From NCBI GenBank assembly GCA_022508325.1, contig JAFLVL010000001.1:2328-66327 (forward strand): a DNA stretch of 64,000 nt, in the 5' to 3' direction. Position 1 is the stretch's first letter. Every line of letters begins with the position of its first letter. The translations under genes and the position numbers were made by a program. Below are positions 2,852-51,817 of the stretch, piece after piece. Source of the DNA: Clostridiales bacterium. GTDB taxonomy: Bacteria; Bacillota; Clostridia; Christensenellales; CAG-314. The notes under the pieces are model-generated. The model was not told where the DNA came from. It did no database searches and saw only the letters and a program-made list of their open reading frames with translations.

Positions 2852-3574
2852 ATGGGTTCAAATTATTCCGTTTTAGCTAAATATTACGATAGGTTTACAC
2901 AAAATGATTGCGACTACGTAAGTTGGTCGCAATATTTGTATCGCGTGGGCAAAGATTGCGGAGCAAAAGAGGTCGTAGATATCGCCTGCGGCACAGGCAA
3001 AATGACGAAATTGCTGGTTGAACAGGGATTGAAAGCCATCGGCATAGATGATAGTGTAGAAATGTTGAACGTCGCGCGAACGAAGTGCAAGGCGGTATTC
3101 GTAAAGCAAGATATGCGCAGTCTGGAGTTGCCGCACCCTGTGGATATGGCGGTATGCGTCAACGACGGTGTAAATTATTTGAAACCAAGCGAGCTATCGG
3201 GCTTTTTCAAACGCGTATCGTCTAGTCTCAAAGCCGGCGCGCCATTCGTTTTCGACGTGTCGTCACCCTACAAATTGCAAACAGTAATAGGGAACAACGT
3301 TTTCTATCTCGACGAAGAGAAGGAGACGTTGTTGTGGAGCAATGTTCTAGCGGAAAACTGTGTAGAAATGAACCTCACGCTTTTTGTAGACGATGGCAAC
3401 GGCAAATACGTGCGTTTCGACGAACAGCATACGCAATACGTTCACACTGACGAACAAATCGTGGCGGCGTTAGAGTCCGCAGACTTCGAACTGCGCGAAA
3501 TTACCGCAGATTACGGGCAGAGTGTAGCTGAAAACTCTCTGCGTAGGTGTTACTACGCTCAAAAGACTAAATAG
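2852..3574 (+). CDS. class I SAM-dependent methyltransferase
   Basis: 240-aa ORF with SAM motif I VVDIACGTGKMT. Substrate not inferable. Confidence 0.8.
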   Translation: MGSNYSVLAKYYDRFTQNDCDYVSWSQYLYRVGKDCGAKEVVDIACGTGKMTKLLVEQGLKAIGIDDSVEMLNVARTKCKAVFVKQDMRSLELPHPVDMAVCVNDGVNYLKPSELSGFFKRVSSSLKAGAPFVFDVSSPYKLQTVIGNNVFYLDEEKETLLWSNVLAENCVEMNLTLFVDDGNGKYVRFDEQHTQYVHTDEQIVAALESADFELREITADYGQSVAENSLRRCYYAQKTK

Positions 3575-6200: not shown

Positions 6201-7232
6201 TCACAAGCCTTTCGTATTGCTTCGTACTCCCTCCCTTACACAGGGAGGGCATTTTGTTGCCTTGCCAATCTTCTTTTTACTGATTTGTTTTACTGTTGTG
6301 AAAACAAATATCAACGCGCCCATTACGCTGACAAGCAGATAGCCGACTTTGACTGCGAAATCGAACCCGAACATGGAGAAAGCCAGCGCAAATCCGAACG
6401 TTATCGCGCAACACAAGGTTTTGTCGGGGATAACGCTATACAAATACTGCGCGATAGGGTAGGCGTTTGCAATTATTCCTGTGACTGCCGATATTAGTAG
6501 CGTCACCAACGCGAATCCAAGCAAAAATACGTTGGTTATTCCGCCAATCGTGGGCATTGCGGCGTTAAATTTGCACGTTGGCAGAACCATCAGCATCAAC
6601 GCAGTCAAAATTACCGACGACAGCAGTGTAGAGATTAAATTTTCTTTTTTCGAGCTGTCAACTGCCAGCTTTGTGACCACGCCGAGCGACATTGTGAGGG
6701 AGAATAGAGCGTAGAGTATGGGTTGATAGAGCGGCACTTGCAAATCTTCTACGTAGTCGCCTTTGCGCGTAGCAAATAATACCGCTATCAGCGCGATAGC
6801 CATCAAAACGGCAACGACATTTGCGACTTTTAATGCCGACATACCTTTATTGAGAAGTAACGATGCAATCAACGCCGCAAAAAATGCATAAAGCGGCAGT
6901 TTCGACCCAAGATTGAAAATGCTACCTAGACATTGCTCAACCCCTGCGAGCACTGTCACAATGCACACGAATGAGCACAGCGCAATCAAAGTGTCGAATA
7001 GCGTAGGGTGTCTCCACAGGCTTACGTTCAGACTGTGAACGTCGTCGCAGCGGTGTTTGCGGCAGTATTCCCGTACTGCGAAATTCACAACGAAAAACAC
7101 GACGCAAAATATTATTGCGTTGAATCTGTTTCCGAAAAATACTTGCGCCTCTTTACCGCTGATAAATCCCACGCCTACACAGCATCCGACCGTCACCGCC
7201 ACGTCGCACGCTAGCTGCAATATTTTTTTCAT
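6201..7232 (-). CDS. YkvI-family membrane transporter-like protein
   Basis: 343-aa polytopic ORF. N-terminal GVGFISGKEAQVFF resembles the YkvI-family GAGFASGQE motif. Confidence 0.65.
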   Translation of the reverse strand: MKKILQLACDVAVTVGCCVGVGFISGKEAQVFFGNRFNAIIFCVVFFVVNFAVREYCRKHRCDDVHSLNVSLWRHPTLFDTLIALCSFVCIVTVLAGVEQCLGSIFNLGSKLPLYAFFAALIASLLLNKGMSALKVANVVAVLMAIALIAVLFATRKGDYVEDLQVPLYQPILYALFSLTMSLGVVTKLAVDSSKKENLISTLLSSVILTALMLMVLPTCKFNAAMPTIGGITNVFLLGFALVTLLISAVTGIIANAYPIAQYLYSVIPDKTLCCAITFGFALAFSMFGFDFAVKVGYLLVSVMGALIFVFTTVKQISKKKIGKATKCPPCVREGVRSNTKGL

Positions 7233-7353
7233 ATTTCTTTCTATTGCGCTTACAATAAAATTATGAATAATATGTGATTTATTTTCATACGCTCGGGCAG
7301 TTAACGAGGCAGTTCATTTGCACTGAGTTTATTTGCTTTAAATCAAAATAAAG

Positions 7354-7422
7354 CCGCAAAGTTAGGGCGTGTACCTAACCTTTGCGACCTTGTGGGTATC
7401 ATGGGTAACTCCCAAGTCCGAC
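7354..7422 (-). repeat. conserved core shared with 27313..27433 (39 nt identical plus a 27-nt related block)
   Basis: The reverse complement of 7354..7392 equals 27395..27433 exactly. It contains the hairpin GCAAAGGTTAGG/CCTAACTTTGC followed by a T-rich tract on the minus strand. Confidence 0.8.
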
Positions 7423-7447
7423 TTCATTAGAGCCATTTTCTTATGTC

Positions 7448-7524
7448 GGCTCGGGTGTTCGGATTGGCGACATCGTGCAACGCTAGGCGCCAATTCGAAT
7501 ACCCGAGCCGAGTGTGTTCGGATA
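7448..7524 (-). repeat. nested-hairpin intergenic repeat, copy F plus abutting partial arm
   Basis: Reverse complement reads GGCTCGGGTATTCG-AATTGGCG..CGCCAATC-CGAACACCCGAGCC. An extra arm at 7510..7524 directly abuts the permease stop codon (7525..7527). Confidence 0.8.
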
Positions 7525-8325
7525 TTAAAATTTTTTTACGACTATTTTCTCCAGAATTGAAACAATCGCGTACATTACTCCCGCAAGCACGCACAGCACA
7601 ATCGTGCAGGTCATCACCAGGTCCAGTCTGAACACCTGTGAGCCGTAGACGAGCAGATATCCTAGTCCTTCTTTTGACACAAGGTACTCGCCCATGATTG
7701 AGCCTATCCACGCCATGCCGACGTTAATTTTCAGCGTTGCCATAAGTGTCGGCACGTTCGCGGGCGCTACAAGCTTTGTGAATATTTGAAATCTGTTCGC
7801 CCGCATTGAGCGTAACAGCAGAGCTTTTTCTTTGTCCGTTTCCAGAAAGCCGTTGAGTATAGTGATGGTGGTGATGACTACTGAGATAAGCACCGCCATG
7901 GTAATTATCGACGCTTTGCCTGTGCCTGCCCAGATGATGATTATCGGACCTAGGGCAATCTTTGGCAGACTGTTCAGCACAACCACGTACGGTTCAAAGA
8001 CGTCCTTTAGGAAGTTATTCCACCACAGTATCACGGCAATCAAATACCCTAGCACAGTTCCTATGACAAATCCTGCCAGCGTCTCTAGAGTAGAGACTGC
8101 GGCGTGGTGCCACAGCGTACCGTTGCCAATCAGCTCGATTAGTGTATTCCAAATTCTCGACGGACTACTTGTAATAAAACTGTCAATCCACTCCAATTGC
8201 GCGGCTAATTCCCATAAGGCAAGCGCGACAATCAAAACGCCGATTTGCGTCACGTGTACCAGAATTTTTCGTGTCTTTTGTGCTCGTAAAAAGAGCAAAT
8301 GCTCTCGTGTAAAGGTGTTTTTCAT
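7525..8325 (-). CDS. ABC transporter permease (NitT/TauT family)
   Basis: 266-aa ORF with 6 TM and a conserved permease loop region (LLRSMRANRFQIFTKLVAPANVP). Overlaps the upstream ATPase gene. Confidence 0.85.
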   Translation of the reverse strand: MKNTFTREHLLFLRAQKTRKILVHVTQIGVLIVALALWELAAQLEWIDSFITSSPSRIWNTLIELIGNGTLWHHAAVSTLETLAGFVIGTVLGYLIAVILWWNNFLKDVFEPYVVVLNSLPKIALGPIIIIWAGTGKASIITMAVLISVVITTITILNGFLETDKEKALLLRSMRANRFQIFTKLVAPANVPTLMATLKINVGMAWIGSIMGEYLVSKEGLGYLLVYGSQVFRLDLVMTCTIVLCVLAGVMYAIVSILEKIVVKKF

Positions 8326-9068
8326 GTGTTTTCTCCGTGCAGATATTTGTGTAACAGCTCAAACTGCTTGGAAAATGACGGATCTTGACGGCGTAAAAGG
8401 GGCGTTTCGATGTCGGCTAGCCCTGTTTCGTGAATTGTGAGCACGGTAGATGGGCGGTTGGTCAACACGACGATTCTGTCCGCAAGAGAAATTGCCTCGG
8501 ATATGTCGTGAGTGACGAGTAGCGCCGTTTTATGCTCTGACTTGATTATCGAATACACGTCGTCGCACACTTCCAGCCTTGTCTGAAAGTCCAAAGCCGA
8601 GAAAGGCTCGTCAAGTAGCAGTAGGTCGGGATTGGTTGCAAGAGTGCGAATCAGCGCCGCTCGTTGCCGCATTCCGCCGGAAATTTCCTGAGGGTAGTGC
8701 CGACGGAATTCCCACAGCCCGTATTTTTTGAGCAATTCATCTGCGTAGGCTTTTGTCTCAGAATTGTATTTATGCATTATCTCCAAGCCGAGATAAACGT
8801 TTTTCTCAATCGTACGCCATTCAAAAAGCTGGTCGCGTTGCAGCATGTAACCGACGGCATTGTCGTTTGCTGTAACAATACGCCCGCCTGTCGGTTCAAT
8901 CAGTCTGCATATTAGCGACAGTATCGTAGTCTTGCCACAGCCCGACGGTCCGATAATCGCCACAAACTCTCCTTCTTGAACGTCGAAGGAGAGGTGCGAT
9001 ACCGCAGTCGTCTGTTGCGTCTTTGAGTAAAAAACTTTTGATACGTCTTGTAGTTCAAGTATTGTCAT
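8322..9068 (-). CDS. ABC transporter ATP-binding protein (NitT/TauT family)
   Basis: Walker A GPSGCGKTT, signature ISGGMRQRAALIR, Walker B LLLLDEPFSALD. Confidence 0.9.
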   Translation of the reverse strand: MTILELQDVSKVFYSKTQQTTAVSHLSFDVQEGEFVAIIGPSGCGKTTILSLICRLIEPTGGRIVTANDNAVGYMLQRDQLFEWRTIEKNVYLGLEIMHKYNSETKAYADELLKKYGLWEFRRHYPQEISGGMRQRAALIRTLATNPDLLLLDEPFSALDFQTRLEVCDDVYSIIKSEHKTALLVTHDISEAISLADRIVVLTNRPSTVLTIHETGLADIETPLLRRQDPSFSKQFELLHKYLHGENT

Positions 9069-9125
9069 CGGTTAGTACTCCTGCTCGCAAAATGAGGCTT
9101 TTTCTCACCCCATGTCGCGTTTTAG

Positions 9126-10112
9126 TTAAATTTTGTTAGCTATTGTATTGTCAACAATGGTGTCGTAATCAACGCGCTTGCTCAGCTCGCCTGCATTCTC
9201 CATAATGTCTTGCATACGGTTGAACGCGTCCTTATTTGTCACGGGCGTTGTCATCCAAGTGTCAAATTTTTGGTAGTTGGAGATTGCCGAAGTAATGAGG
9301 TCAAGCGTCGTGCCGTCAAAGTATTTTTGTACCAGCTTTGCGCACTCTTCTGCCGTGTGACTCATGGCGTATTCCGTGCCCTTCCACACAGCTCGTAGGA
9401 ACTTTTCCACCTTGTCTGGGTGCTTAGACATAAAGTCTGCCGTTGCCGAGTAGCAAGTGTAGGGAATCTCGCCGCTGTCCATACCGATAGCCGAGAGAAT
9501 GTAGCCCTTACCTTCCTTGACAACCTGACTTGCCGCAGGTTCAAACAGAGGCACGTAGTCGCCTGTTCCGCCTGTGAACGCAGGACCCAACGCGCCGAAT
9601 TCGATAGAGTAATCCATTGTAATATTGTTGCCGTTGGTGTAGCCTTTGTTGTTCAAGACGTATTGCAGAATCATTGCGGGAGTACCGCCTTTGCGGCCCA
9701 TCAGCACCGTGCTGCCGTTGATGTTCGAGTAGTCGAAGTTCTCGACAGGTGCGCGACCTACCAAAAAGCTACCGTCGCGCTTGGTCAACTGCGCAATAAC
9801 CTTCGGAAAGTCCTTTTTGCCTTGTAAGTATACGTAAATATTTGCCTCACAGCCCATGAGTCCTATGTCAGCCTCACCTGTCAACAGTGCCGTCATAACA
9901 TTGTCTGCGCCGCCGCCGTTGGTGACTTCTACCTCAATTCCTTCCTCTTCGAAATAACCCAACGCCATAGCAAGATATTGCGGCGTGTAGAACAAGCTGT
10001 GAGTAACTTCGTTTAGACGTATTACGTTTTCGTTTCTATTACAAGCGGCAATGCCCACAGCGAGCGTCGCCACAAGCAATATTGCCAAAACAACTGTAAA
10101 TATTTTTTTCAA
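9126..10112 (-). CDS. ABC substrate-binding lipoprotein (NMT1/THI5- or SsuA-like)
   Basis: 328-aa ORF with signal peptide and lipobox (LAVGIAAC). It is the first gene of a three-gene transporter operon. Confidence 0.8.
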   Translation of the reverse strand: MKKIFTVVLAILLVATLAVGIAACNRNENVIRLNEVTHSLFYTPQYLAMALGYFEEEGIEVEVTNGGGADNVMTALLTGEADIGLMGCEANIYVYLQGKKDFPKVIAQLTKRDGSFLVGRAPVENFDYSNINGSTVLMGRKGGTPAMILQYVLNNKGYTNGNNITMDYSIEFGALGPAFTGGTGDYVPLFEPAASQVVKEGKGYILSAIGMDSGEIPYTCYSATADFMSKHPDKVEKFLRAVWKGTEYAMSHTAEECAKLVQKYFDGTTLDLITSAISNYQKFDTWMTTPVTNKDAFNRMQDIMENAGELSKRVDYDTIVDNTIANKI

Positions 10113-10188
10113 ATTAATCCTCCTAATAGTGTTAAAGCTTCAAATGCCTTATTGCATACTACTATTTTCCTTTAAAAAATGTTAATCT

Positions 10189-10298
10189 GCTCGGGTATTC
10201 GCCTGAAAAAAGGCTTCGACACGCAAAGGACGAAGGGCGCGTGTCTCCAGAAAATTTTCAGTCGAACACCCTCGCCTCTGTAGGAAGTCACCTCTAAA
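10189..10298 (+). repeat. nested-hairpin intergenic repeat, copy A
   Basis: GCTCGGGTATTCG-CCTGAAAA...TTTTCAG-TCGAACACCCTCGCC, followed by the conserved 3' flank TCTGTAGGAAGTCACCTCTAA. Confidence 0.8.
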
Positions 10299-10326
10299 AA
10301 AGCCGTCCATAAACACGGCTATATGC

Positions 10327-10355
10327 TTGCAAAATTGCCTATTCTGTACTAAAAT
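10327..10355 (+). promoter_or_regulatory. sigma-A-type promoter for valS
   Basis: TTGCAA (10327-32), 17-nt spacer, TAAAAT (10350-55). SD GTGAGGA lies before the ATG at 10400. Confidence 0.6.
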
Positions 10356-10399
10356 GATTAATACAAATAAACTGTTTTATCTTGTGAGGACAAACAAAT

Positions 10400-13012
10400 A
10401 TGCTAGACAAAACCTATCAACCGTCAACGTTTGAGAGCAAACTGTACGAAAATTGGATGAAAAAGGGCTATTTTACCCCCAAGGCTGAGATTGGCAAGCC
10501 ATATTTTTCATTGGTTTCGCCTCCTCCCAACATTACCGGGCAGTTGCACCTCGGACACGGACTTGATAATGCCATAATGGATACGCTCGTACGCTTCAAG
10601 CGTATGCAAGGCTACAACACTCTTTGGCTACCTGGCACCGACCACGCCAGCATTGCGACGGAAGTCAAAATCGTTGAGGCGTTGAAGGCAGAGGGCATCG
10701 ACAAACGCGAATTGGGTAGAGAAGGTTTCCTCGTGCGCGCATGGCAATGGAAGGAAAAATACGGTGGTAGAATCGTCGAACAGCTCAAAAAGCTGGGCAG
10801 TAGCTGTGACTGGTCTCGCCTTGCCTTCACAATGGACGAACAATGCAGTCTCGCCGTTCGCAAACAATTCGTGTCAATGTACAAAAAGGGGTTGATTTAT
10901 CGCGGTAGCCGCATAATTAACTGGTGCCCTGTGTGCAGAACGGCATTGTCCGACGCAGAAGTAGAGTATGCCGAACAGGACGGCTTTTTCTGGCATTACG
11001 GCTATACGACGCCCGATGGCAGTACAACCGTGACCTTTGCAACCACTCGACCCGAGACCATGCTCGGCGACACGGCAGTTGCAGTCAATCCCAACGACCC
11101 GCGTTACACGCACTTGGTTGGCAAAACGGTAGTAGTCCCATTCGTCAACCGTGAAATACCTGTCATCGCCGACGAATACGTTGATATGGAATTCGGCACA
11201 GGTGTTGTCAAAATCACCCCGGCGCACGATCCCAACGACTTCGAAGTGGGGGTTCGCCACAATCTGCCTGTCATTCGCGTAATGAACGACGACGGTACGA
11301 TGAACGAAAACGCAGGCGAATTTGCAGGACTTGACCGTTACGAGGCTAGGAAACGCATAGTTGCAAAGCTCAAAGAAATGGGCATTTTGCAAAAGGTAGA
11401 GCCGCACAAGCACAACGTCGGCAGTTGCTATCGCTGTCACACGACGGTAGAGCCGATAGTATCAAAGCAATGGTTTGTCAAAATGCAACCTTTGGCAGAG
11501 CCGGCAATCGAGGCTGTGAAGAACGGCGACGTCACCTTCCACCCCGAACGCTTTGAAAAGACCTACTTTAATTGGATGGAGAATATTCGCGATTGGTGCA
11601 TTTCCCGTCAACTGTGGTGGGGACACCGCATTCCGGTGTGGTATTGCGACGACTGCGGCGCGGAAATTTGCGAAGAAGACGACCCAACCGTCTGTCCCAA
11701 CTGCGGCAGTCACCATATTCACCAAGACGAGGACGTCCTCGACACTTGGTTTAGTTCTGCGCTTTGGCCATTCTCGACGCTTGGCTACTGCACGGACAGC
11801 GACGACTTCAAGGCATTCTTCCCAACGACCGTGCTTTCATGTGGCTACGACATAATATTCTTCTGGGTTGCACGCATGATATTCAGCTCTCTGTACGCAA
11901 CGGGCAAACCACCGTTCCACGATGTGTTGATGCACGGTATAGTGCGCGACGAGCAAGGGCGCAAGATGAGCAAATCTCTCGGCAACGGCGTTGACCCTGT
12001 GGAATTTATCGACCAATACGGCGCAGATACATTGCGTTTTGCATTGATTAACGGCGTAGCCAACGGTTCGGACATTCGTTTCTCGCCCGACAAAATCGAA
12101 GGCACGCGCAATTTCATGAATAAAATATGGAATGCAAGCCGATTCGTGCTGATGAACGTCGAGGGCAAAAAGCTCGTTGACGTCAAAAAGTGCTCGCTAT
12201 CCCTTGCCGACAAGTGGATTCTGACTAAGCTCAACGACACGGTAAAGCAAGTCACCGAGCTTATGGAGAAATTCGAGTTGGGTATGGCTGCGCAATGCTT
12301 GTACGACTTTGTTTGGAGCGAATTCTGCGATTGGTATATCGAATTTACCAAGCCTGTGCTTTATGGCACGGACGAAGAGGCGCGTTTGACGACTCTGTCG
12401 GTATTGAACTACGTTTTGGATCAGATTTTGAAGCTACTGCACCCATTCGTCCCCTTCATTACAGAAAAGATTTATCAGGAAATGCCGTCTCACCGTGGCA
12501 GTATAATGACGAAAAAGTTCCCGAAGGTTGTGAAGCGCTTGAACTTCAAGCAAGATTGCGAGTTGGTAGAGGAGCTGAAAGAGCTTGTTTCGAAAATTCG
12601 CAACATTCGTTCGGAATACGGCGTCGTACCCTCCAAGCGTATTCGCCTCTACATTGTGGCAAACGACGAGCGTATTAAGGAATGTAGCGTATACCTCGCC
12701 AAACTTTGCGGACTGGAAGAAGTGGTGTTCGAACACGCCCCCGCGGCAGAAAAGACCGTCAAAGCAGTGACTACTGCCGCAACCTGCGAAGTGCCACTTG
12801 GCGACCTTGTAGACAAAGATAAGGAAATCGAGCGGCTCAATAAAGAATTGGAAAACGTCAACAACGAGATTATTCGCGCAGAAGGCAAGCTGAACAATCA
12901 GGGATTTTTGGCAAAGGCGCCCGCCCAACTAGTCGAAGCGGAAAAGGCAAAACTGGCGAAATTCCGTGAACTGAAAGCACAACTCGACGCCCGCCTCGCC
13001 GAACTCGCCTAG
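10400..13012 (+). CDS. valS: valine--tRNA ligase
   Basis: 870-aa ORF with HIGH region PNITGQLHLGH, KMSKS motif and a C-terminal coiled coil. Confidence 0.98.
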   Translation: MLDKTYQPSTFESKLYENWMKKGYFTPKAEIGKPYFSLVSPPPNITGQLHLGHGLDNAIMDTLVRFKRMQGYNTLWLPGTDHASIATEVKIVEALKAEGIDKRELGREGFLVRAWQWKEKYGGRIVEQLKKLGSSCDWSRLAFTMDEQCSLAVRKQFVSMYKKGLIYRGSRIINWCPVCRTALSDAEVEYAEQDGFFWHYGYTTPDGSTTVTFATTRPETMLGDTAVAVNPNDPRYTHLVGKTVVVPFVNREIPVIADEYVDMEFGTGVVKITPAHDPNDFEVGVRHNLPVIRVMNDDGTMNENAGEFAGLDRYEARKRIVAKLKEMGILQKVEPHKHNVGSCYRCHTTVEPIVSKQWFVKMQPLAEPAIEAVKNGDVTFHPERFEKTYFNWMENIRDWCISRQLWWGHRIPVWYCDDCGAEICEEDDPTVCPNCGSHHIHQDEDVLDTWFSSALWPFSTLGYCTDSDDFKAFFPTTVLSCGYDIIFFWVARMIFSSLYATGKPPFHDVLMHGIVRDEQGRKMSKSLGNGVDPVEFIDQYGADTLRFALINGVANGSDIRFSPDKIEGTRNFMNKIWNASRFVLMNVEGKKLVDVKKCSLSLADKWILTKLNDTVKQVTELMEKFELGMAAQCLYDFVWSEFCDWYIEFTKPVLYGTDEEARLTTLSVLNYVLDQILKLLHPFVPFITEKIYQEMPSHRGSIMTKKFPKVVKRLNFKQDCELVEELKELVSKIRNIRSEYGVVPSKRIRLYIVANDERIKECSVYLAKLCGLEEVVFEHAPAAEKTVKAVTTAATCEVPLGDLVDKDKEIERLNKELENVNNEIIRAEGKLNNQGFLAKAPAQLVEAEKAKLAKFRELKAQLDARLAELA

Positions 13013-13087: not shown

Positions 13088-13111
13088 AGAATACTATTTC
13101 AGACATAATAT
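13088..13111. repeat. copy P1 of the ACTATTTCAGACATAGTAT palindrome (3' arm degenerate)
   Basis: AGAATACTATTTCAGACATAATAT. One substitution in the 19-nt core. Confidence 0.7.
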
Positions 13112-13296
13112 ATAATAGTTGAATAAAAGCCTAAAAAAGAGTGCACACTCACTACAACGAGCGCGCACTTTTTTTTGAGTTTGTACATAGTCTAAAAACA
13201 GAGCAATTGGTCTTTATATTTGGGCTTGTTGCTTGAACGTCAACGGTGGAAGTGTCGCGCCTCAGCTAGAAGTTGAGTAAATAAGGAGCGCGAACC

Positions 13297-15330: not shown

Positions 15331-15347
15331 AAGGCGCAACTGTCTAC

Positions 15348-15431
15348 GGCTCGGGTAATTCGCCTGGTGACTTAGGTGCTTCGCAATGCGCCCCAGTCGA
15401 ACACTCTCGCCTGTATAAGTGCTACCTCTAA
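15348..15431 (+). repeat. nested-hairpin intergenic repeat, copy B
   Basis: GGCTCGGGTAATTCG-CCTGG...CCAG-TCGAACACTCTCGCC plus flank TGTATAAGTGCTACCTCTAAC. Confidence 0.8.
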
Positions 15432-23859: not shown

Positions 23860-24654
23860 ATGTCTTTTTTGGAAAAAGAACTGTTTAGTATGGGCGAATT
23901 CGCAGTACCTATGTACCTGATACTTTTGGCAGTTGCAGTACTGTTGATTTTAGTACTTATTATTGTTTGCGCATCACTTTCTGCCAAGTTGAAGAAGTCG
24001 AGAAAACAATCTAAAGCTGTTGCAGTTGCAGAAAACACGCCAGAGCGAACATCAACCGAACCGGCACCCGCAACGGTAGCGGAAGAACCGCAACCCGAAC
24101 CTCAGCCCGAGCCGCAACCCGAACCGGTGGAGGAGCCCATCGTTGAGGAGCCTGTAGAGGAACCTGTCGTTGAGGAAGAAGTTGAAGAGAAACCTGCAAA
24201 GAAGACTGCGACTACGAAGAAGTCCACAACGACAACAAGCAAGTCTACCTCTGCTAAATCTTCGACCGCTAAGTCCTCAACTACAAAGTCTACTACTGCA
24301 AAATCCTCGTCAAACAAGACTGAAAGCAAGCCCGCCGAGAAAAAATCTACGTCAACGGCGAAAACTTCTACGTCTTCAAATGCAAAATCCACATCTACAA
24401 AGTCGACAACTACCAAGGCAGCGGCAACCACAGCCAAGACAGAAGAGCCCGCAAAGGACGAGAGCAAGGTTTACCACATTTCCAAACACGACAGTGGCAA
24501 GTGGCAGGTTAAACTTGGCAAGGGCGCAAAAGCGTTGAAGCTGTTTGACACGCAGGCAGAAGCTATTGCATTTGCAAAAGAAAAGGCAAATAATCAAGAA
24601 GGTAGCATAGTAATCCACAAAGTTGACGGCAAAATCCGCAAGCAAAATTATTAG
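23860..24654 (+). CDS. membrane-anchored low-complexity protein with C-terminal DUF2188-like domain
   Basis: N-terminal TM helix, a (E/P/Q/V)-rich tract including EPQPEPQPEPQPEP, an S/T/K-rich tract, and the C-terminal domain YHISKHDSGKWQVKLGKGAKALKLFDTQAEAIAFAK. Confidence 0.7.
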   Translation: MSFLEKELFSMGEFAVPMYLILLAVAVLLILVLIIVCASLSAKLKKSRKQSKAVAVAENTPERTSTEPAPATVAEEPQPEPQPEPQPEPVEEPIVEEPVEEPVVEEEVEEKPAKKTATTKKSTTTTSKSTSAKSSTAKSSTTKSTTAKSSSNKTESKPAEKKSTSTAKTSTSSNAKSTSTKSTTTKAAATTAKTEEPAKDESKVYHISKHDSGKWQVKLGKGAKALKLFDTQAEAIAFAKEKANNQEGSIVIHKVDGKIRKQNY

Positions 24655-26077: not shown

Positions 26078-26274
26078 TTTTATACCCCATACATGCATTC
26101 TATGCACACATAGAACAAAAAATTATCACTAAGCCGTTGTTCGTTGCCAATCCTTTCGTAACGGCTTGTAAACTTTTTGAAAATTTCACAAAAAAATTGT
26201 TGCATACGCTTTATTTTTTTTTCAAGATATAGTATTATAAACATAGTATATTTACATGACGCAGGAGACGTAAG

Positions 26275-27239: not shown

Positions 27240-27242
27240 TTC

Positions 27243-27487
27243 CGACCACACGCGAGGTGTGGCTTGAACGCAGTCGCTAACGCTTTGTGCTAGCAAGCCT
27301 AATTCCACCTCGGTCGGATTTGGGAGTTGCCCATGACACATGGGCGAATTATTAAAAGCTTTCGCCGGGGAGTAGCATTCCCCGGCATCCCCCGCAAGGT
27401 CGCAAAGGTTAGGTACACGCCCTAACTTTGCGGAAGTTTAGTTTGAACTTTACGACCACACGCGAGGTGTGGCTTGAACGCAGTCGC
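27243..27487 (+). repeat. composite repeat locus: two perfect 35-nt direct repeats flanking a 175-nt element
   Basis: CGACCACACGCGAGGTGTGGCTTGAACGCAGTCGC occurs at 27243-77 and 27453-87. The interior contains the core shared with 7354-7422. Confidence 0.85.
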
Positions 27488-27508
27488 CTACATGTAAAGA
27501 TTACCTCT

Positions 27509-29904: not shown

Positions 29905-29990
29905 GGCTCGGGTATTCGTCTTGGGGTTTAGGTGCTATCGCAATGCGCCCCGCCAAACACCCTCGCCTCTATAAGATTTTATCTATAAGA
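29905..29990 (+). repeat. nested-hairpin intergenic repeat, copy C
   Basis: Starts at the first base after the TGA stop (29902-04). GGCTCGGGTATTCG...CAAACACCCTCGCC. Confidence 0.8.
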
Positions 29991-30041: not shown

Positions 30042-30069
30042 GTAATACTATTTCAGACATAGTATTCTA
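30042..30069. repeat. copy P2 of the palindrome
   Basis: GTAATACTATTTCAGACATAGTATTCTA. Centre is 30 nt upstream of ATG 30085. Confidence 0.75.
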
Positions 30070-30084
30070 AAAAATAACATTTAT

Positions 30085-31665
30085 ATGTCATTTTACATTA
30101 CAAAACCTATCAAAATTGCGCTTGGAGAGGATGTAAATATATCAAACGCCAAAATCGCAAAATTCTTGCGACTACGCGAAAAAGATATAAAAAGCGTACG
30201 CCTTCACAAGCAGAGTATTGACGCGCGCAACAAAAGCGATGTTCATTTCGTATGCTCTTACGTGCTGGAAAGTGACAAAATTCCCCTCAACGCTTCACCA
30301 TATTCAGAGCCAACAGACGTCTTGACGAGTGTTCAGCGTCAAGGCATACGCAAGAAGTGTCTAGTGGTGGGCGCTGGCCCTGCGGGGCTGTTTTGCGCAT
30401 TGTATTTGTGCAAAGTCGGGATCTCGGTTACGGTTATTGAACGCGGTTCGGACGTTGACAAGCGCTCGCAGACTGTCAAAAAATTTTTTGACGGCGGCGA
30501 GTTTGACGAAAAGTGCAATGTCCAATTCGGCTTGGGTGGCGCGGGTACATTTTCCGACGGCAAGCTTACTACAGGCATTTCTTCCCCTTTGACCTATACC
30601 GTCTTTCAACAGCTTTTTCGCTCGGGCGCACCGCAAGATATTCTCACCTCGTCATTACCTCACGTCGGCACGGACAAGCTCACTACGGTAGTTGCGAATC
30701 TGCGCGACGAGATAATCGAAAACGGCGGTGAATTCTTGTTTGACAGGACTGTCGAGGACTTTTTGACGGAAAAGTGCAGAATTATCGGTGTTAAACTCGA
30801 CGACGGCACTACTCTTTACGCAGACTTTGTCGCTTTAGCTTGCGGTCACAGCGCGAGAAATACTTTTTATAAGTTAGCGGACTTGGGCGCGGAAATAACC
30901 TTCAAACCATTTGCCGTAGGTCTTAGAATCGAGCACCCACGTGAATTCATTAACACAGCGCAGTACGGTACGATTGCAGTCACCCACAGAGATTTGCCCG
31001 CCGCAAGTTACAAGCTTGTCCACAACGGCGCAACGCACAGTTGTTACAGCTTTTGCATGTGTCCCGGCGGTGTCGTGGTGGCTGCCAATTCCGAGAATGG
31101 TACCGTCGTTGTCAACGGTATGAGCAATTACAACCGCGACGCGGCAAACAGCAACAGCGCGTTGGTCGTCAACGTCACCGCCGAGGACGTAAACGAATAC
31201 GGTTTCGGTAACGACGCTTTTGCTGGCGTCAGGTTTCAGCAGTATTTGGAAAAGCAGGCGTATAAGCTTTCCGACGGCAACTATCGCGCGCCCTCGCAAA
31301 ACGTCACGGATTTCCTCGCCAATCGCCCGACTAAAAGTTTCGACCTTTCGCCAAGCTATCCGCGAGGAGTTACACCCGTTAATCTTCGCAATTTATTGCC
31401 TCAAACCATATCCGGTACGCTAGCAGAAGGGCTATACGAATTTGACAGAAAAATCAAAGGCTTTGGCGCAAGCGGCGTACTGACAGCGGTGGAGAGCAGA
31501 ACCTCCGCACCTGTTAAAATCTTGCGAAACGAGCTGTTTCAGAGTAATATTGAAGGCTTGTTCCCCATTGGGGAAGGCGCGGGCTACGCGGGCGGCATAG
31601 TGTCGTCGGCAGTAGACGGACTACGCGTGGCGCAAGCAATCATACGGCTCGGGCATTCGTGTTGA
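30085..31665 (+). CDS. FAD-dependent dehydrogenase (COG2509-like)
   Basis: 526-aa ORF with VVGAGPAGLF dinucleotide motif. N-terminal region resembles uncharacterised FAD-dependent dehydrogenases. Confidence 0.75.
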   Translation: MSFYITKPIKIALGEDVNISNAKIAKFLRLREKDIKSVRLHKQSIDARNKSDVHFVCSYVLESDKIPLNASPYSEPTDVLTSVQRQGIRKKCLVVGAGPAGLFCALYLCKVGISVTVIERGSDVDKRSQTVKKFFDGGEFDEKCNVQFGLGGAGTFSDGKLTTGISSPLTYTVFQQLFRSGAPQDILTSSLPHVGTDKLTTVVANLRDEIIENGGEFLFDRTVEDFLTEKCRIIGVKLDDGTTLYADFVALACGHSARNTFYKLADLGAEITFKPFAVGLRIEHPREFINTAQYGTIAVTHRDLPAASYKLVHNGATHSCYSFCMCPGGVVVAANSENGTVVVNGMSNYNRDAANSNSALVVNVTAEDVNEYGFGNDAFAGVRFQQYLEKQAYKLSDGNYRAPSQNVTDFLANRPTKSFDLSPSYPRGVTPVNLRNLLPQTISGTLAEGLYEFDRKIKGFGASGVLTAVESRTSAPVKILRNELFQSNIEGLFPIGEGAGYAGGIVSSAVDGLRVAQAIIRLGHSC

Positions 31666-31794
31666 CGCCTAACGTTTCACGCTCGCTTGAAAACCCTTCG
31701 CCAAAGGTGAAATGTCGTCAATCCGAACACCCTCGCACGCTCTCGAAGGGCACTCGTGCTTGTTGCAGACTGTTTTGTGTCCTGACACACTCGC
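31646..31794 (+). repeat. nested-hairpin repeat copy D (full copy plus 3' half of a second)
   Basis: The 5' arm GGCTCGGGCATTCG encodes the last 6 codons and the stop of the upstream gene. The second partial copy at 31741-31794 resembles the copy E 3' half. Confidence 0.8.
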
Positions 31795-31817
31795 CACCAT
31801 ATAATGTTAGCAGAATA

Positions 31818-31871: not shown

Positions 31872-34800
31872 TTAGATTGCGTTGAGCAGTTCGGTGATGA
31901 AGTCGGCAAGCGGCATATCTTTCCAAGCGTATAGGTGGTCGTTCTTTGTTTGCTCTTCATCTTCGGAATAATTTGCGTGTGTGTGTTCCCAATATTGTTT
32001 GGCTGTTGCGCTATTATTCGCAGCAATATAAGTGAAGTATCCCGCCAGCGTGCACTCGTGAATAACTTTCTCAGAGGACAACAAACTTCCTTCGCCTTCG
32101 CATTTGTGGTCGTCGGTCCTGCAGAAAATGATTGCTAACTTGTACTCATCTTCTTCGCTCATATCTTTAATCATTCCGCTGTCCATCAAATCGCCTATGG
32201 TGAGACCTGCCAATATTCCGTCCAGCTCTCCACTCGCCAAGCCGTCCAGCGTCAGGTTAGACATTTTGCTATCCAAGCCTTTGACAACTGAACCGTTATT
32301 ATCGTACCAAATAAAGCCAAAACAGCTGTCGTCGTGGGCTTGCTTGCCGCAAATGAGTTCACCGTCACCGTAGCAACTCTCATTGTGTATGTGGTGAGTA
32401 GTGTCCTTGCAATTTAGTTGCGCGTTGAAATACTTGTTCTTGTGCCAATCCCAAAGGTAGTAGGTCACGTCATTGTTGTTGTCGACACCCTGATATACGT
32501 TAGTTGTACCTTCGAGCGGTATTAGCTCGACGTCGTCGGCTTTTTCCTCACGGTGGTAGCCCATAGCCGTACCTACGTATAATTCGTTGAGTTCATTTGA
32601 CAGATCGCCTATTCTCACGTCGGCAAGTTCGGCTAGCATTGCGTTGTCGCCAAGATTGTCGATTACGTCGCCAAGTTTGGTGTCGTTGACGATAGTTCTC
32701 AGCGTACTGTCGTTAAGGTCGACGAATTGTACGCTTGCCAGTCTGCCCATTACGCCTGTAACAAGACAAATTTCGTCGTGGGTGTGCCCGCCATTACCTT
32801 CTTCGTCAGGTTCACTCTCTTCAAGTCCGCAACTGTACCAATTGTAGCCATAACAGCCGGCATTGTGCGTATGCTGAGCCAGCTCACAGTTTTCGCCGTA
32901 GTTACAGCTCGTGCCGTGCTCGTGCTCGTCCTTTGTGCAGTCGAATTGCGCTAGATACCACTTGTCGCCCTCTTGACGAATAAAGGTGCCGTCACTAGTA
33001 TTTTCCTTAATTCCGTCAATGCCTGTATCAACATAATCTTTGTCGTTTGTAACAACCTTGCGGCTGTATGCGAGAAAATCGCCCAAATACATGCTGTCAA
33101 TCGCGCCTTCCAGTTTGCCAATAGGCGTGTTTTCGATAGCTTTGAGTGAATCGGGCACACTGTCGCCCATGACGTCTTTCAACGTGAAGGACAGGATCGT
33201 ATCGTTCAAGTCGTCCAATTCGGAGACCTTCTCGTTTGCTAGCTTGCCCATCATACCGATCGCAATACAATCGTCAACGTGTTCATGGTCGGTAGTGCTG
33301 TCGCAACTGTACCAAACAAAGCCGTAGCAGGCAACGTCGTGTGTATGCGGATTAATTGCGCAATCTTCACCGTCATTACAGCTCTCGCCATGCTCGTGTT
33401 CGTCCTTTGTGCAGTCGAATTGCGTCAAATACCACTTGCCGCCGTCCAGACGAATAAATGCGCCGCTTGTCTTGTGTTGCATTACGCTGTCAATGCCTGT
33501 CTCGTCGTAATCGTCATTCAACTCGACCTCTTGACGGTGGTATTCTAAGAAGTCGCCGAGATACATTCCTTCAATAGCGTCGTTCAAATCTTTAATTTGC
33601 GTATCTTGAATGCTCTTGAGCATCTCAGGTACGTCTTCGCCCATGACATCTCTCAAGGTGAAGGACATAACCGTTTCGTCCAAACCGTTCAGGTTAGAGA
33701 CCGTCTCATTGGCGAGCTTGCCCATCATGCCTTCGACAATCGAGCAGTCGCCAACGCCGTGACTGTGGTCTTCGCCTTCCACTTTGCAGTCATACCAAGC
33801 GAATACGTAGCAATCTGCATCGTGAACGTGTTCAGAGTCCTCCTCGGTACAAATCAACTTGCCTTCGTACCAATGTGTCTTATCTGTCGAAAGTGCAATA
33901 GTGCCTTTTTCCAGTATTAGCAGGTAATAAATGACGTCGTCGTCCTCGTCGGAGTCTTTCAGTTCTACGATTTTTTCTTCGTCCACGTACTCCAACCCGT
34001 CGATCGGCTTGCGAACGTACTCCAAGAAATCACCGAGGTACATGCTCTTAATTGCTTCGTCGAGGTTGCCGATTTTGGTATTGCCAAGACTTCTTAGCAT
34101 ACTCGGAATATTGGATTCGCCCAGTACGTCCAGTAAAGTCAGGTTCAAAATGGTGTTGTCGATGTCGAGAAGTCCGCCAACGGTGGTGCTGGACAGCGCC
34201 GCCTTGATACCCTCGCTGGGTATCGTACAATCTTCGTCCTCGTACCATATGAAACGGTAGCAACTCGCCGTGTGGTGCTCTGCAAGTTCACAGATTAATT
34301 GGTCGTCTTGATAGCAGTCCGCGCTGTGTTTATGTTCTGTTTCTTCGCAATCAAATTCTGCTAGATACCAGTTGTCGCCGTCCTTTCTTATAACGACGTC
34401 GCCGTTTGTCATTACGTCGTCAATTCCGTCAATAACTTCGAAAGCGTCCAATTCGGTAATTTGCTTGCGCACGAATCCGAAGAACGTGCCCAAATAAATC
34501 TGGTCAATGCCGTCGCTCATCAGCTCGCGTAGCGTCATGTCCTTCAAATTGCCGAAAATGCCGCTTGTATCCTGTCCGTCGAGAATCTCGTGCAGTTTCA
34601 CGTCCATCAACCTGTCAACCAGCGCGTCGGCGTTGCCGCTAGTCAGTTCGCCGATGGTAGAATCGGCAATAGCGGTGTAAAGTCCGCTTGCGCGGTTGTA
34701 GTGTACGCCGTCTTTAATCATATCTTCGTCGGTATTCTCCAACGCCGCGTCTTGCGAATACCAAATAAAGCCGAAGCAGTTCACGTCGTGCGTGTGCTCG

Positions 34801-35897
34801 GACAGACCGCAGGAATAGTTGCCGTCTGCGTCAGGTTCGCCACATTTCTCTACGTGCGCGTGCTCTGTGTACGCGCAGGTCATTCTCGCATCGTAATACT
34901 CGTATTCCCCCTCTTCAATTGCGGGCAGAACGAGGAGGAACTTTTCTTGCTCTCCCTCGACATAGCTCAAAACGGCTCTGTCGCCCTCTTCGTCGAGATA
35001 TTTTTCGGAAAATCCTTCTGTATCACTTTCTTTCAGCTCATTGCGTTGATAACCGAGCAAATCGCCCAAATATACGGCGTTGAGCATATCGTCGGGGTTG
35101 ACGCTGCCGTTATCGTCAATCAAATCGGACAAGGTGTGGCTTCTGAAAATTGCGTTGAGAATTGCGCTATCGTCGCCCAACAATTCTTTCATTTTGAGCA
35201 GTCCCATCGCTTCAAATGCGCCGCCTACCTTAAATTGCAACAAAATATTGCCACCAAACGCGCCCAAAAGCTTGCCAATGCTGGACTGTCCGAACGCCCA
35301 CATAATAGCATTGTCGTCCAATCGATCTCGCGGGAAGATACCGGGCAAAATATCGGAAAGCAATACCAAGTCGAAGACGTACGCGAAGCCTTTATCGCCG
35401 TCGTAAAGCTCCGCCATATTATGTACGGACAGTTTCTCAAGCATTTCTTTTGAAAATAGCCCTTCGCCGTTCTCGTCCTGACTGAACATATTGATAAAGG
35501 AGAAAAATGCGCTGACCTTCACCTGTTGCGCAGCGGATCCCGAGTCGCCGCCCAAAAATTCAAAAATGGGAATTTCGAGAACGTCCTGTGGCACCTCTTT
35601 GCCGCCAAAAAGCTCGTTAGGATTGATATTGTAATGCTCGCAAAATTGCCCTAGCGTAAAGTAGAGCCCATTCTCGTCCGTTATGCCCACCTTTTGCTTA
35701 TACAGGTCGGCAATAGATTTGTACATATCATATAGCGACATATCTGCAAGGTCACCGAGGAATTTGTCGCTGTCGGGGTATATATCGCTAGGGTGAACGA
35801 CGGTAACGGTAATGTATATGGCAAGACCGAGCGCGCCGAATACGAACACGATGCCTATTAAAAATCCCAAGAAAAATGCTAAAATTCTTCTTCCCAT
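31872..35897 (-). CDS. giant membrane-anchored Cys/His-repeat protein, family unknown
   Basis: 1,341 codons from ATG 35897 (GAGG upstream). One N-terminal TM helix and six degenerate modules. See findings. Confidence 0.85.
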   Translation of the reverse strand: MGRRILAFFLGFLIGIVFVFGALGLAIYITVTVVHPSDIYPDSDKFLGDLADMSLYDMYKSIADLYKQKVGITDENGLYFTLGQFCEHYNINPNELFGGKEVPQDVLEIPIFEFLGGDSGSAAQQVKVSAFFSFINMFSQDENGEGLFSKEMLEKLSVHNMAELYDGDKGFAYVFDLVLLSDILPGIFPRDRLDDNAIMWAFGQSSIGKLLGAFGGNILLQFKVGGAFEAMGLLKMKELLGDDSAILNAIFRSHTLSDLIDDNGSVNPDDMLNAVYLGDLLGYQRNELKESDTEGFSEKYLDEEGDRAVLSYVEGEQEKFLLVLPAIEEGEYEYYDARMTCAYTEHAHVEKCGEPDADGNYSCGLSEHTHDVNCFGFIWYSQDAALENTDEDMIKDGVHYNRASGLYTAIADSTIGELTSGNADALVDRLMDVKLHEILDGQDTSGIFGNLKDMTLRELMSDGIDQIYLGTFFGFVRKQITELDAFEVIDGIDDVMTNGDVVIRKDGDNWYLAEFDCEETEHKHSADCYQDDQLICELAEHHTASCYRFIWYEDEDCTIPSEGIKAALSSTTVGGLLDIDNTILNLTLLDVLGESNIPSMLRSLGNTKIGNLDEAIKSMYLGDFLEYVRKPIDGLEYVDEEKIVELKDSDEDDDVIYYLLILEKGTIALSTDKTHWYEGKLICTEEDSEHVHDADCYVFAWYDCKVEGEDHSHGVGDCSIVEGMMGKLANETVSNLNGLDETVMSFTLRDVMGEDVPEMLKSIQDTQIKDLNDAIEGMYLGDFLEYHRQEVELNDDYDETGIDSVMQHKTSGAFIRLDGGKWYLTQFDCTKDEHEHGESCNDGEDCAINPHTHDVACYGFVWYSCDSTTDHEHVDDCIAIGMMGKLANEKVSELDDLNDTILSFTLKDVMGDSVPDSLKAIENTPIGKLEGAIDSMYLGDFLAYSRKVVTNDKDYVDTGIDGIKENTSDGTFIRQEGDKWYLAQFDCTKDEHEHGTSCNYGENCELAQHTHNAGCYGYNWYSCGLEESEPDEEGNGGHTHDEICLVTGVMGRLASVQFVDLNDSTLRTIVNDTKLGDVIDNLGDNAMLAELADVRIGDLSNELNELYVGTAMGYHREEKADDVELIPLEGTTNVYQGVDNNNDVTYYLWDWHKNKYFNAQLNCKDTTHHIHNESCYGDGELICGKQAHDDSCFGFIWYDNNGSVVKGLDSKMSNLTLDGLASGELDGILAGLTIGDLMDSGMIKDMSEEDEYKLAIIFCRTDDHKCEGEGSLLSSEKVIHECTLAGYFTYIAANNSATAKQYWEHTHANYSEDEEQTKNDHLYAWKDMPLADFITELLNAI
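32301..35072 (-). repeat. six degenerate in-frame tandem modules (about 150-190 codons each) inside the giant gene
   Basis: YLGDF-type motif recurs at DNA 35072, 34496, 34040, 33563, 33089 and 32579. Modules 4 and 5 are 84/142 identical in my ungapped hand alignment. Confidence 0.8.
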
Positions 35898-35907
35898 ACC
35901 AATACCT

Positions 35908-39732: not shown

Positions 39733-39759
39733 AGAATACTATTTCACACATAGTATTCT
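39733..39759. repeat. copy P3 of the palindrome (perfect 10-bp arms)
   Basis: AGAATACTAT-TTCACAC-ATAGTATTCT. Confidence 0.8.
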
Positions 39760-39808
39760 AAAATAGCTCAAAATTTGATTAAAATACCCATTTGCATGGT
39801 GCAGAGGC

Positions 39809-51676: not shown

Positions 51677-51763
51677 GCATCGGGCATTCCGCACAAAACG
51701 GCTTCACGTCGCAAAGGACGAAGGGCGCTAGTTGCAGATTGTTTTGTAGCGGAACACCCTCGC
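51677..51763 (+). repeat. nested-hairpin intergenic repeat, copy E
   Basis: Starts at the first base after the pcrA TAG. GCATCGGGCATTC-CGCACAAAAC...GTTTTGTAGCG-GAACACCCTCGC. Confidence 0.8.
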
Positions 51764-51817
51764 TTATGTAGTGTAGGTTGGTAGAGAATATAAAGTTGAA
51801 CCTTTTTAGGAGTGTAA

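Follow-up and report, generated by a model that had tools for sequence, protein, structure and literature searches.

Hairpin-forming repeats of a lineage-restricted, probably mobile family at the 3' ends of genes in uncultured Clostridia

A window of 64,000 nucleotides from a Clostridiales bacterium (assembly GCA_022508325.1, contig JAFLVL010000001.1, positions 2,328 to 66,327 of the forward strand) contains six full copies (A-F) and several half copies of a hairpin repeat element, and a seventh full copy, G, lies 4 kb past the end of the window on the same contig (L129 16386-16476; loci used for comparison are designated by L numbers). The repeats are restricted to one lineage, multi-copy and polymorphic for insertion; they are found in sense orientation at the 3' ends of genes, their pairing is kept, and they display modular interiors, arrays and nesting. 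What sets the family apart most clearly is its strict polarity and its abutment to stop codons. We consider it probable that the copies are mobile repeats that are non-autonomous, form hairpins and are confined to one lineage, of the same general kind as repetitive extragenic palindromic sequences and bacterial interspersed mosaic elements (REP/BIME), miniature inverted-repeat transposable elements (MITEs), BOX elements and mycobacterial interspersed repetitive units (MIRUs). The family was previously undescribed and is a new one within the known class of small non-autonomous bacterial repeats. We file it as new because it corresponds neither to REPs sensu stricto, nor to integron attC sites, nor to any Rfam family.

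Results

Anatomy of the repeat unit

The unit is composed of four parts, namely a short head (GGC, GCA or GTCGC(R)), a foot that forms the base of the hairpin, a long paired stem of variable sequence and a 3' tail. The foot is conserved (TCGGGYATTC...GAACACCCTCGC) and encloses inner stems that vary between copies but are still complementary; the stem surrounds one of several alternative interiors. Units measure 62-91 nt between the arm ends, plus 15-55 nt of tail, and form nested hairpins. Searches at ≤3 mismatches gave 14 matches to the 5' arm motif, for 3.9 expected, and 14 matches to the 3' arm motif, for 4.8 expected, and none of 100 shuffles yielded as many in either case. Between them the arms make an inverted repeat of 11/14; the same three deviations, i.e. 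a TC/TC internal loop and an A.C opposition, recur nearly throughout the copies. In copy F the inverted repeat of the foot rises to 13/14, with near-perfect 24-nt inverted ends. From the outside inward, the common fold consists of GGC/GCC pairs, the TC/TC loop, GGG/CCC, the A.C mismatch, UUC(G)/(C)GAA and the variable inner stem. The foot is subterminal, and the heads and tails beyond it have no inverted repeat. The folding z-scores of the sense strand are modest in most copies, and copy F reaches z=-5.5. Several unpaired interior motifs (GGCTTC, GTTGCAGATT and CCTAG..ATGT) are kept across distant metagenome-assembled genomes (MAGs).

An initial annotation of this DNA, made from the sequence alone, had described much of this organisation. 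The six loci that it listed are all in place in the sequence, with corrections to the ends of two of them: the first base of copy A is T (10188), and the 5' arm of copy B has an extra A. Its inner stems were correctly given, as they do differ between copies and yet pair. The two subfamilies that it proposed also hold, A and E having 34 nt in common at 85% and B and C having TTAGGTGCT..CGCAATGCGCC in common, and the recurring 3' flank is a real ACCTCTAA tail. As for the partial arms, 7510-7524 is indeed a partial 3' arm and the segment following copy D is a 3' half unit (Table 1), while 7291-7303 is a weak match. What had been taken for a variant at 27243/27453 is actually a different hairpin repeat, hereafter family 2, which has only the 3' tail ...ACCTC-TAA in common with the main family.

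Filled and empty sites

Orthologous junctions were found with and without a unit. The pcrA-ligA spacer is 147 nt long in the window, where it holds copy E, versus 14, 14, 11 and 10 nt in L039, L040, L041 and L044, respectively (85-90% LigA identity). At the same junction, L043 (93% LigA identity) has a different insert, which belongs to family 2 and is 268 nt long (L043 2035-2302); this insert is in the opposite orientation. Similarly, tyrS and the next gene overlap at GTGA in the window and in L041, and L039 has a 125-nt insert with a copy at this point, which reads ...AAG TAG / AGGCTCGCG... / TGAAAGAAT. In L126-L128 (90-93% PncB identity), the stop of lgt and the start of pncB overlap (ATAATG or GTGATG), and the window has 122 nt with copy B there. 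Copy B is thus an insertion that also altered the C-terminus of lgt, which is ...NKTV* in the window versus ...KKAEEK* in the relatives. The orthologous spacer of copy C is without a copy in L003. Copy D replaces the last codons of its host gene (...AQAIIRLGHSC* vs ...AMAIASGS* in L003); the upstream open reading frame (ORF) runs 17 nt into the head and ends at a TGA within the element. We also observed that, at the lgt-pncB junction of L125, the pncB 5' end and the lgt 3' end are partially duplicated over 333 nt (9668-10000), a stretch that is called as a 91-aa ORF.

The window, L126 and L127 all have a unit at the site of copy A, or site A, placed identically after TGT(T/G)AA but with three different interiors; this amounts to interior swapping at one locus. 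L125 has no unit at site A and the T-box leader of valS instead (RF00230, 85.5 bits, E=3e-19; L125 1484-1713). In the window (10113-10399), L126 and L127, valS has no T-box leader, and the site A unit and a simple promoter-like site are present there. A terminator-like hairpin with a T-run (AGCCGTGTTTATGGACGGCTTTTTT; 10301-10320, minus strand) abuts the tail of copy A; there is no minus-strand gene upstream of it, and minus-strand promoter-like sites are found nearby at 10497-10470 and 10427-10400. Elsewhere, composite units of about 230 nt are identical or near-identical in L008, L009 and twice in L011, and the occurrence of near-identical composites within single MAGs points to recent duplication.

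Position, polarity and junctions

Of 38 independent sites, 22 have a same-strand ORF (≥100 codons) that stops ≤25 nt before TCGGG. For 19 of those 22 the gap is 3-9 nt, which means that the stop lies 0-5 nt ahead of the head. None of the 38 sites has an opposite-strand ORF stop ≤30 nt from the 3' arm. Copy F, which is on the minus strand among minus-strand genes, and two oppositely oriented arrays of L011 each track their own upstream gene, showing that polarity follows transcription and not replication. Sites A, L003 and L012 are located in divergent promoters. The neighbours of the copies include argS, spo0A, mgtE, TetR and similar genes, and the flanking genes are housekeeping genes.

Stop-like triplets are present on both sides of copies A, B, E, F and G, of the family 2 unit at 27240 and of the L039 copy; they are identical in five cases and TAG/TGA in two. 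After the second triplet comes the apparent original downstream sequence, with element boundaries inferred from diverged relatives: an AAAAG-terminator following TAA (A and the 27240 unit) or TGA (G), GAGTG...ATG following TAG (E), or AAGAAT following TGA (L039). At its end, the inserted DNA has a Shine-Dalgarno-like sequence (AGGAG for ligA, AAGGA in L039) at a distance of 8-11 nt from the next start, which would explain the tolerance of insertion into tight operon junctions. Intrinsic terminators come after the units and are not part of them, so that the units are transcribed within host mRNAs. The 3'-UTR-like (untranslated region) placement guessed at the outset is therefore accurate, with copies within transcription units, after stop codons and before terminators.

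Pairing, covariation and strand

The complementarity of the inner stems across copies, which the initial annotation had noted, is significant in two tests. In a partner-swap test on 23 non-redundant copies from all subfamilies, pairing of each 5' half with its own 3' half gave a mean of -9.1 kcal/mol, vs -4.0 with the 3' halves of other copies. The own partner ranked first of 23 in 15 cases, and none of 20,000 permutations matched the observed mean. In the alignment of type I copies (MAFFT, 20 copies), RNAalifold gives 25 pairs, eight of which have compensatory changes, vs 4.0±1.0 in column shuffles (0 of 500 shuffles reached the observed value); 94% of the cells are paired, vs 36-59% when the partners are slid. 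The foot itself covaries in rare variants, i.e. GGTATTGG/CCAATACC in copy G and CATATGTCC/GGACATA in L016, although the single-stranded flanks TCG...CTCGC remain constant. Covariation alone does not point to RNA, because DNA-level processes can also keep complementarity in palindromic DNA.

The strand antisense to the gene is the more stable one in 37 of 39 copies, with means of -37.0 vs -31.2 kcal/mol (Wilcoxon p=1.4e-7). On that strand, the conserved A.C opposition becomes a G.T(U) wobble and TC/TC becomes tandem GA/AG. In the variable stems, G.U and A.C exceptions are roughly equal in frequency. The better antisense fold argues against selection on the fold of the sense RNA. It is compatible with two views: an imperfect hairpin is recognised on one of the DNA strands, or the bottom strand is the element's 'own'.

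Distribution and database matches

We scanned one genome per species (185,579 species) with the pattern TCGGGYATTC-N36-66-AACACCCTCGC. Among the 37 loci retrieved, 31 are real, and all of these are in about nine uncultured Clostridia MAGs, namely rabbit 'Lapin' bins, 'Clostridiales HAN102/HAN103' and a low-GC MAG that is mislabelled Corallococcus. The remaining six are single chance matches in high-GC genomes. MAGs with the family include JAFLVK01 (HAN103), JAFLVJ01 (HAN102), CANQCN01, CANQNJ01, CANRHP01, CANQJK01 and CANRHN01 (Lapin bins), and JAMPAB01. Further copies beyond the window, which the initial annotation had made a test of its proposal, thus exist both on the same contig and in related MAGs. 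Relatives at 55-81% PncB identity have zero copies in 80 metagenome loci (1.05 Mb), and two patterns gave zero matches in viral contigs. The LigA and PncB relatives include organisms named Corallococcus sp. CAG:1435 and Candidatus Fimimonas, both of which NCBI taxonomy places in Myxococcota; spo0A, the Firmicutes operon order and a GC content of about 47% speak against that placement, and the gene content indicates Clostridia.

Rfam yielded no matching family: there was no match in the window at the gathering score, none on the repeats of four repeat-rich loci at E≤5 and none in window 7200-10420 at E≤1. Full-text literature searches retrieved no description of the family; sequence strings gave primer coincidences only, and queries on MITEs at stop codons in Clostridia returned nothing relevant. 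In line with the initial annotation, no transposase was found in the window: a comparison of 30 window ORFs with Pfam gave zero transposase domains.

Arrays, nesting and a second repeat family

In the Lapin MAGs, long spacers are full of arrays in one orientation, in which one head is followed by several 3' modules (period 115 in L018, 184 in L030), and related modules are also mixed. The arrays are head-to-tail in a single orientation; inverted pairs are found only where the flanking genes diverge (L011). The punctuation GTCGCTCG occurs ahead of several different 5' feet. In L025, the apical hairpin of a type I copy hosts a nested module of 70 nt. Arrays and nesting of this sort are the behaviour of selfish repeats that duplicate in tandem and enter each other.

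The nested module, of about 70 nt, has the layout GGC.CCACTTGATGAGCAAGGGGAGCTG-hairpin-CTGAGGGGTTTGA and is found on the minus strand of L025 (about 935-865), L011 (about 960-890) and L002 (about 900-830). A hammerhead reading of this module (CTTGATGAG...CTGAGGGG; L025, L011) was discarded, since the core is a misfit and L011 gave no Rfam match. Family 2, for its part, consists of GTCGC-punctuated hairpins (CCACACGCGAGGTGTGG; CGCAAAGGTTAGGTACACGCCCTAACTTTGCG). The arrays might be mistaken for CRISPR loci, given the GTCGC heads and some tails with ATTGTTTGAAAC, like type I repeat ends, but the 'spacers' themselves repeat, with a period of 115 or 184, so that a CRISPR reading was rejected. The tails of Lapin-type units in L007, L017 and L026 (e.g. 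L026 about 290-320) read ...GGCATTGTTTGAAAC-TTA-GTCGC... and recall the GTCGC start and ATTGAAAC end of type I-C CRISPR repeats, which is probably a coincidence. Three small genes for DUF559 proteins (Vsr-like PD-(D/E)xK endonucleases) lie among the repeats on two Lapin contigs (L025 151-516 and 2299-2652, minus strand; L035 297-662, plus strand), and none is present in the window. One pair is 83% identical at the nucleotide level over the gene and its flanks in non-syntenic contexts, and might represent a mobile selfish gene. DUF559 was rejected as a partner gene of the repeats, as it is found among them in only 2 of 31 loci and a literature search gave no link.

Table 1. Positions of the repeat units and family 2 segments in the 64-kb window
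Feature	Position	Strand	Description	Surroundings
Copy A	10186..10294	+	type I-like interior; 5' arm 10188-10201, 3' arm 10263-10276; tail TCTGTAGGAAGTCACCTC; nhmmer E=2e-15	TAA 10183-10185 and TAA 10295-10297; divergent spacer upstream of valS
Copy B	15331..15428	+	leader 15331-15347; 5' arm 15348-15362; 3' arm 15398-15411; tail end ACCTC	between lgt and pncB; TAA 15429-15431 after tail
Copy C	29905..29983	+	core 29905-29967; tail TCTATAAGATTTTATC	core directly after TGA stop of HI0933-like gene
Copy D	31646..31736	+	type II, extra hairpin in apical loop	
Solo 3' half unit, type I	31753..31797	+	GTTGCAGACTGTTTTG..GACACACTCGCC; nhmmer E=1.5e-5	just after copy D
Copy E	51677..51806	+	type I; core 51677-51763, tail to 51806; nhmmer E=1e-22	pcrA stop TAG 51674-51676; second TAG 51807-51809, then GAGTG and ligA start
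Copy F	7430..7524	-	type II, palindrome almost perfect; leader 7524-7510 (partial 3' arm); core 7509-7448; tail 7447-7430	TAA 7527-7525 and TAA 7429-7427
Repeat family 2 composite	27240..27507	+	38-nt hairpin units 27240-27277 and 27450-27487, 97% identical, around GTCGC-punctuated hairpins; ACCTC tail as in main family	TAA 27237-27239 (stop of 42-codon ORF); TAA 27508-27510, then terminator
Repeat family 2 segment	7290..7426	-	98% identical to 27391-27433 over 43 nt	adjoins copy F

Discussion

The spread of such non-autonomous repeats would be catalysed in trans by a strand-specific enzyme. By analogy with HUH/Y1 transposases of the IS200/IS605-RAYT type (IS, insertion sequence; RAYT, REP-associated tyrosine transposase), this enzyme might read the single-stranded flanks TCG...CTCGC and the shape of the stem, rather than its sequence. 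The insertion target may be a stop-like triplet (TAA/TAG/TGA), which would explain both the position and the fixed polarity of the copies. One could speculate that insertion takes place into the non-template strand, which might be single-stranded just past the stop codon, where ribosomes leave the transcript. As is the case for REPs, co-transcribed copies probably affect mRNA 3' ends or the translation of neighbouring genes as a by-product (PMC3733652).

A more specific scheme can be drawn up, in which a strand-specific insertion system homes to translation stop codons in sense orientation, using either an HUH-type enzyme acting on the exposed non-template strand or an RNA-mediated step. The head of the element would supply a stop triplet and the tail a Shine-Dalgarno sequence, such that even overlapping cistrons survive, and the foot would serve as a docking or cleavage site for the exchange of interiors at a fixed locus. 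We regard this scheme as rather improbable as a whole.

Several observations weigh against a family of mobile repeats. No candidate enzyme has come to light, since neither the 30 window ORFs nor the Pfam gene tables of about 0.2 Mb of related loci contain a transposase domain; the same tables contain no RAYT. A blastp search of family-bearing loci (about 0.23 Mb) with an IS608 TnpA sequence, a test of little power, found no match. As regards the exact ends and any target duplication, the flanking triplets differ (TAG/TGA) in two cases, and copy B entered the former reading frame 9-10 nt before its end. A large number of units are half copies unable to form the foot hairpin, indicating that some of the growth took place by tandem duplication rather than transposition. 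Furthermore, the conservation of unpaired interior motifs across distant MAGs hints at a constraint beyond mobility, and site A, which is kept in three lineages, could have a function.

The initial annotation had left the choice between a REP/MITE-like element and a structured 3'-UTR RNA family. The former is supported by lineage-restricted insertions, by filled and empty sites and by the absence of an adjacent transposase and of an Rfam family, while the antisense fold and the half units weaken an RNA role. If that role were primary, the repeats would be structured 3'-UTR or intercistronic modules, retained for their action on host mRNAs by blocking 3' exonucleases, providing RNase or protein sites or stalling terminating ribosomes. 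For E. coli REPs near stop codons, such stalling was reportedly described by Liang and Deutscher in 2015. The location of the copies, co-oriented with the upstream gene between its stop codon and the terminator or next cistron, agrees with this role, as do the compensatory changes in the stems, the conserved unpaired motifs and the retention of site A in three relatives. Nevertheless, the strand antisense to the mRNA folds better in nearly all copies (37/39), and only on that strand do the conserved A.C and UC/UC become G.U and tandem GA. The z-scores of the sense strand are modest for most copies, and G.U and A.C exceptions are about equally frequent in the variable stems. In addition, the essential operon junctions concerned have no element in close relatives, there are many degenerate half units and jumbled arrays, and Rfam gave no match even at E≤5. 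A primary role at the RNA level thus appears unlikely to us. Two further readings were dismissed. A coding function does not agree with lengths that differ by non-multiples of 3 and with unrelated interiors; as for terminators, the sense strand has no U-tract after the hairpin, and copy E lies inside the pcrA-ligA operon.

Two other kinds of DNA elements have to be weighed against mobile repeats of the proposed type. Classical cut-and-paste MITEs, which derive by deletion from a DDE insertion sequence and have inverted repeats at their termini as well as a short duplication of the target (TA or TAA/TAG), would account for the conserved imperfect inverted ends, nearly perfect over 24 nt in copy F, for the variable interiors common to subfamilies and for the stop-like triplets on either side of several copies. 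However, a strict single polarity relative to genes (22:0) is unexpected for a symmetric transpososome, and the outermost ends are not inverted repeats, as heads are GGC or GTCGC and tails consist of 20-55 nt of unrelated sequence. The same three arm mismatches are conserved, one head often precedes several 3' modules, and no parent IS was seen in the loci examined. We consider an origin of this sort very unlikely. Even less credible, in our opinion, are attC-like sites, in which the folded single strand would be the substrate of a tyrosine recombinase, the foot the recombination box and the interior the variable terminal structure. The resemblance is one of architecture, with imperfect palindromes of 60-100 nt, conserved ends with fixed unpaired bases and a variable centre, and of behaviour, with sites just past stop codons in one orientation, a bottom strand that folds better and different interiors at one locus. 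Nonetheless, RYYYAAC/GTTRRRY core sites are absent from the arms, the genes on either side are not cassettes but core housekeeping genes whose synteny is conserved, presence or absence concerns the repeat alone and not an ORF with its repeat, and neither the gene tables nor the Pfam scans revealed an integrase domain.

Among known systems, the REP/BIME sequences and REPINs (REP doublets forming hairpins) of Proteobacteria, with their RAYTs, resemble the present family as high-copy, intergenic imperfect palindromes with conserved unpaired nucleotides at the base of the hairpin, whose stems vary between families, which are co-transcribed and of which different types occur at the same locus in related genomes. 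For REPs, the distance to the 3' end of the upstream ORF is <20 bp, and a REP can provide that ORF's stop codon (PMC3733652); the repeats described here are similarly close to the upstream ORF (22 of 38 sites within 25 nt) and occasionally supply its stop. They differ from REPs by their nested hairpins of 60-100 nt, versus a single palindrome of 20-40 bp, and by the lack of a 5' GTAG or regular CGTC tag: CGTC is present only by overlap in the GTCGCGTCGGG subset, and GTAG is found in some tails, 5-8 nt 3' of the hairpin rather than at its 5' foot. The inverted dimers of BIMEs and REPINs are also absent, and the new family has one polarity, a long 3' tail and a host in Clostridia.

The palindrome-associated transposable elements (PATEs) derived from IS200/IS605, and HUH Y1 transposition, share with our repeats imperfect hairpins in subterminal position that are recognised by their shape, asymmetric ends that have no true terminal inverted repeats and strand-specific insertion with fixed polarity beside a short sequence. 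The imperfect subterminal hairpin, the asymmetric ends and the fixed-polarity insertion were all found here; unlike PATEs, which have separate hairpins at the left and right ends, the new units have one long hairpin. BOX elements of Streptococcus pneumoniae are similar in having end modules that pair with each other and an interior that varies in type and number, in being intergenic and co-transcribed with stable folds and in having no known transposase. Their sequence is unrelated, and neither strict stop-codon abutment nor a single polarity has been reported for them. MIRUs are likewise units of 40-100 nt between cistrons in operons, in one orientation relative to transcription and in tandem arrays of variable copy number. 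Supply and colleagues are said to have described, in 1997, MIRU ends that overlap or abut the flanking stop and start codons, with one orientation and tandem arrays. In contrast, MIRUs do not form hairpins, their translation as mini-ORFs is assumed, and their sequence and host are unrelated. Integron attC sites are comparable in size, in having an imperfect palindrome with conserved ends, a variable centre and fixed unpaired bases, in their location after stop codons in one orientation and in the better fold of the bottom strand; they differ by their R/L core boxes, integrase and cassette neighbours, versus housekeeping neighbours here.

Repeats of the REP, MITE and BOX types have been well studied in Proteobacteria and streptococci, but hardly in uncultured gut Clostridia. 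The filled and empty sites at the essential operon junctions pcrA-ligA, tyrS and lgt-pncB provide a clean case of dated gains, and strict polarity together with stop-codon abutment constrains the mechanism of insertion. The family also illustrates how small repeats remodel gene ends, through altered C-termini, the uncoupling of overlapping cistrons and the replacement of the valS T-box leader. In practical terms, the repeats break metagenome assemblies in these lineages and offer a ready marker for strain typing. If it is true that the enzyme recognises stop codons or the shape of a one-strand hairpin, this would be a useful addition to the field of HUH and single-stranded DNA transposition.

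Other features of the window

A palindromic motif, AATACTATTTCAGACATAGTATTCT, is found at window positions 13092-13120, 26230-26258, 30046-30074, 39737-39765 and 48622-48650, preceding several start codons by 30-45 nt. In a Lapin MAG (L003 about 3385-3410), it is conserved ahead of the orthologous FAD-dependent gene, and it looks like a regulon operator or promoter element. On the minus strand, a 1357-aa ORF without Pfam domain (31872-35945) has internal repeats of about 470-530 nt; 32828-33038 and 33302-33512 match at 73%, and shorter repeats are present at 32305, 32836, 33310 and 34759. Lastly, 15-nt periodic repeats (24234-24432) are located within the ORF 23860-24654, the end of which is a DUF2188 domain.

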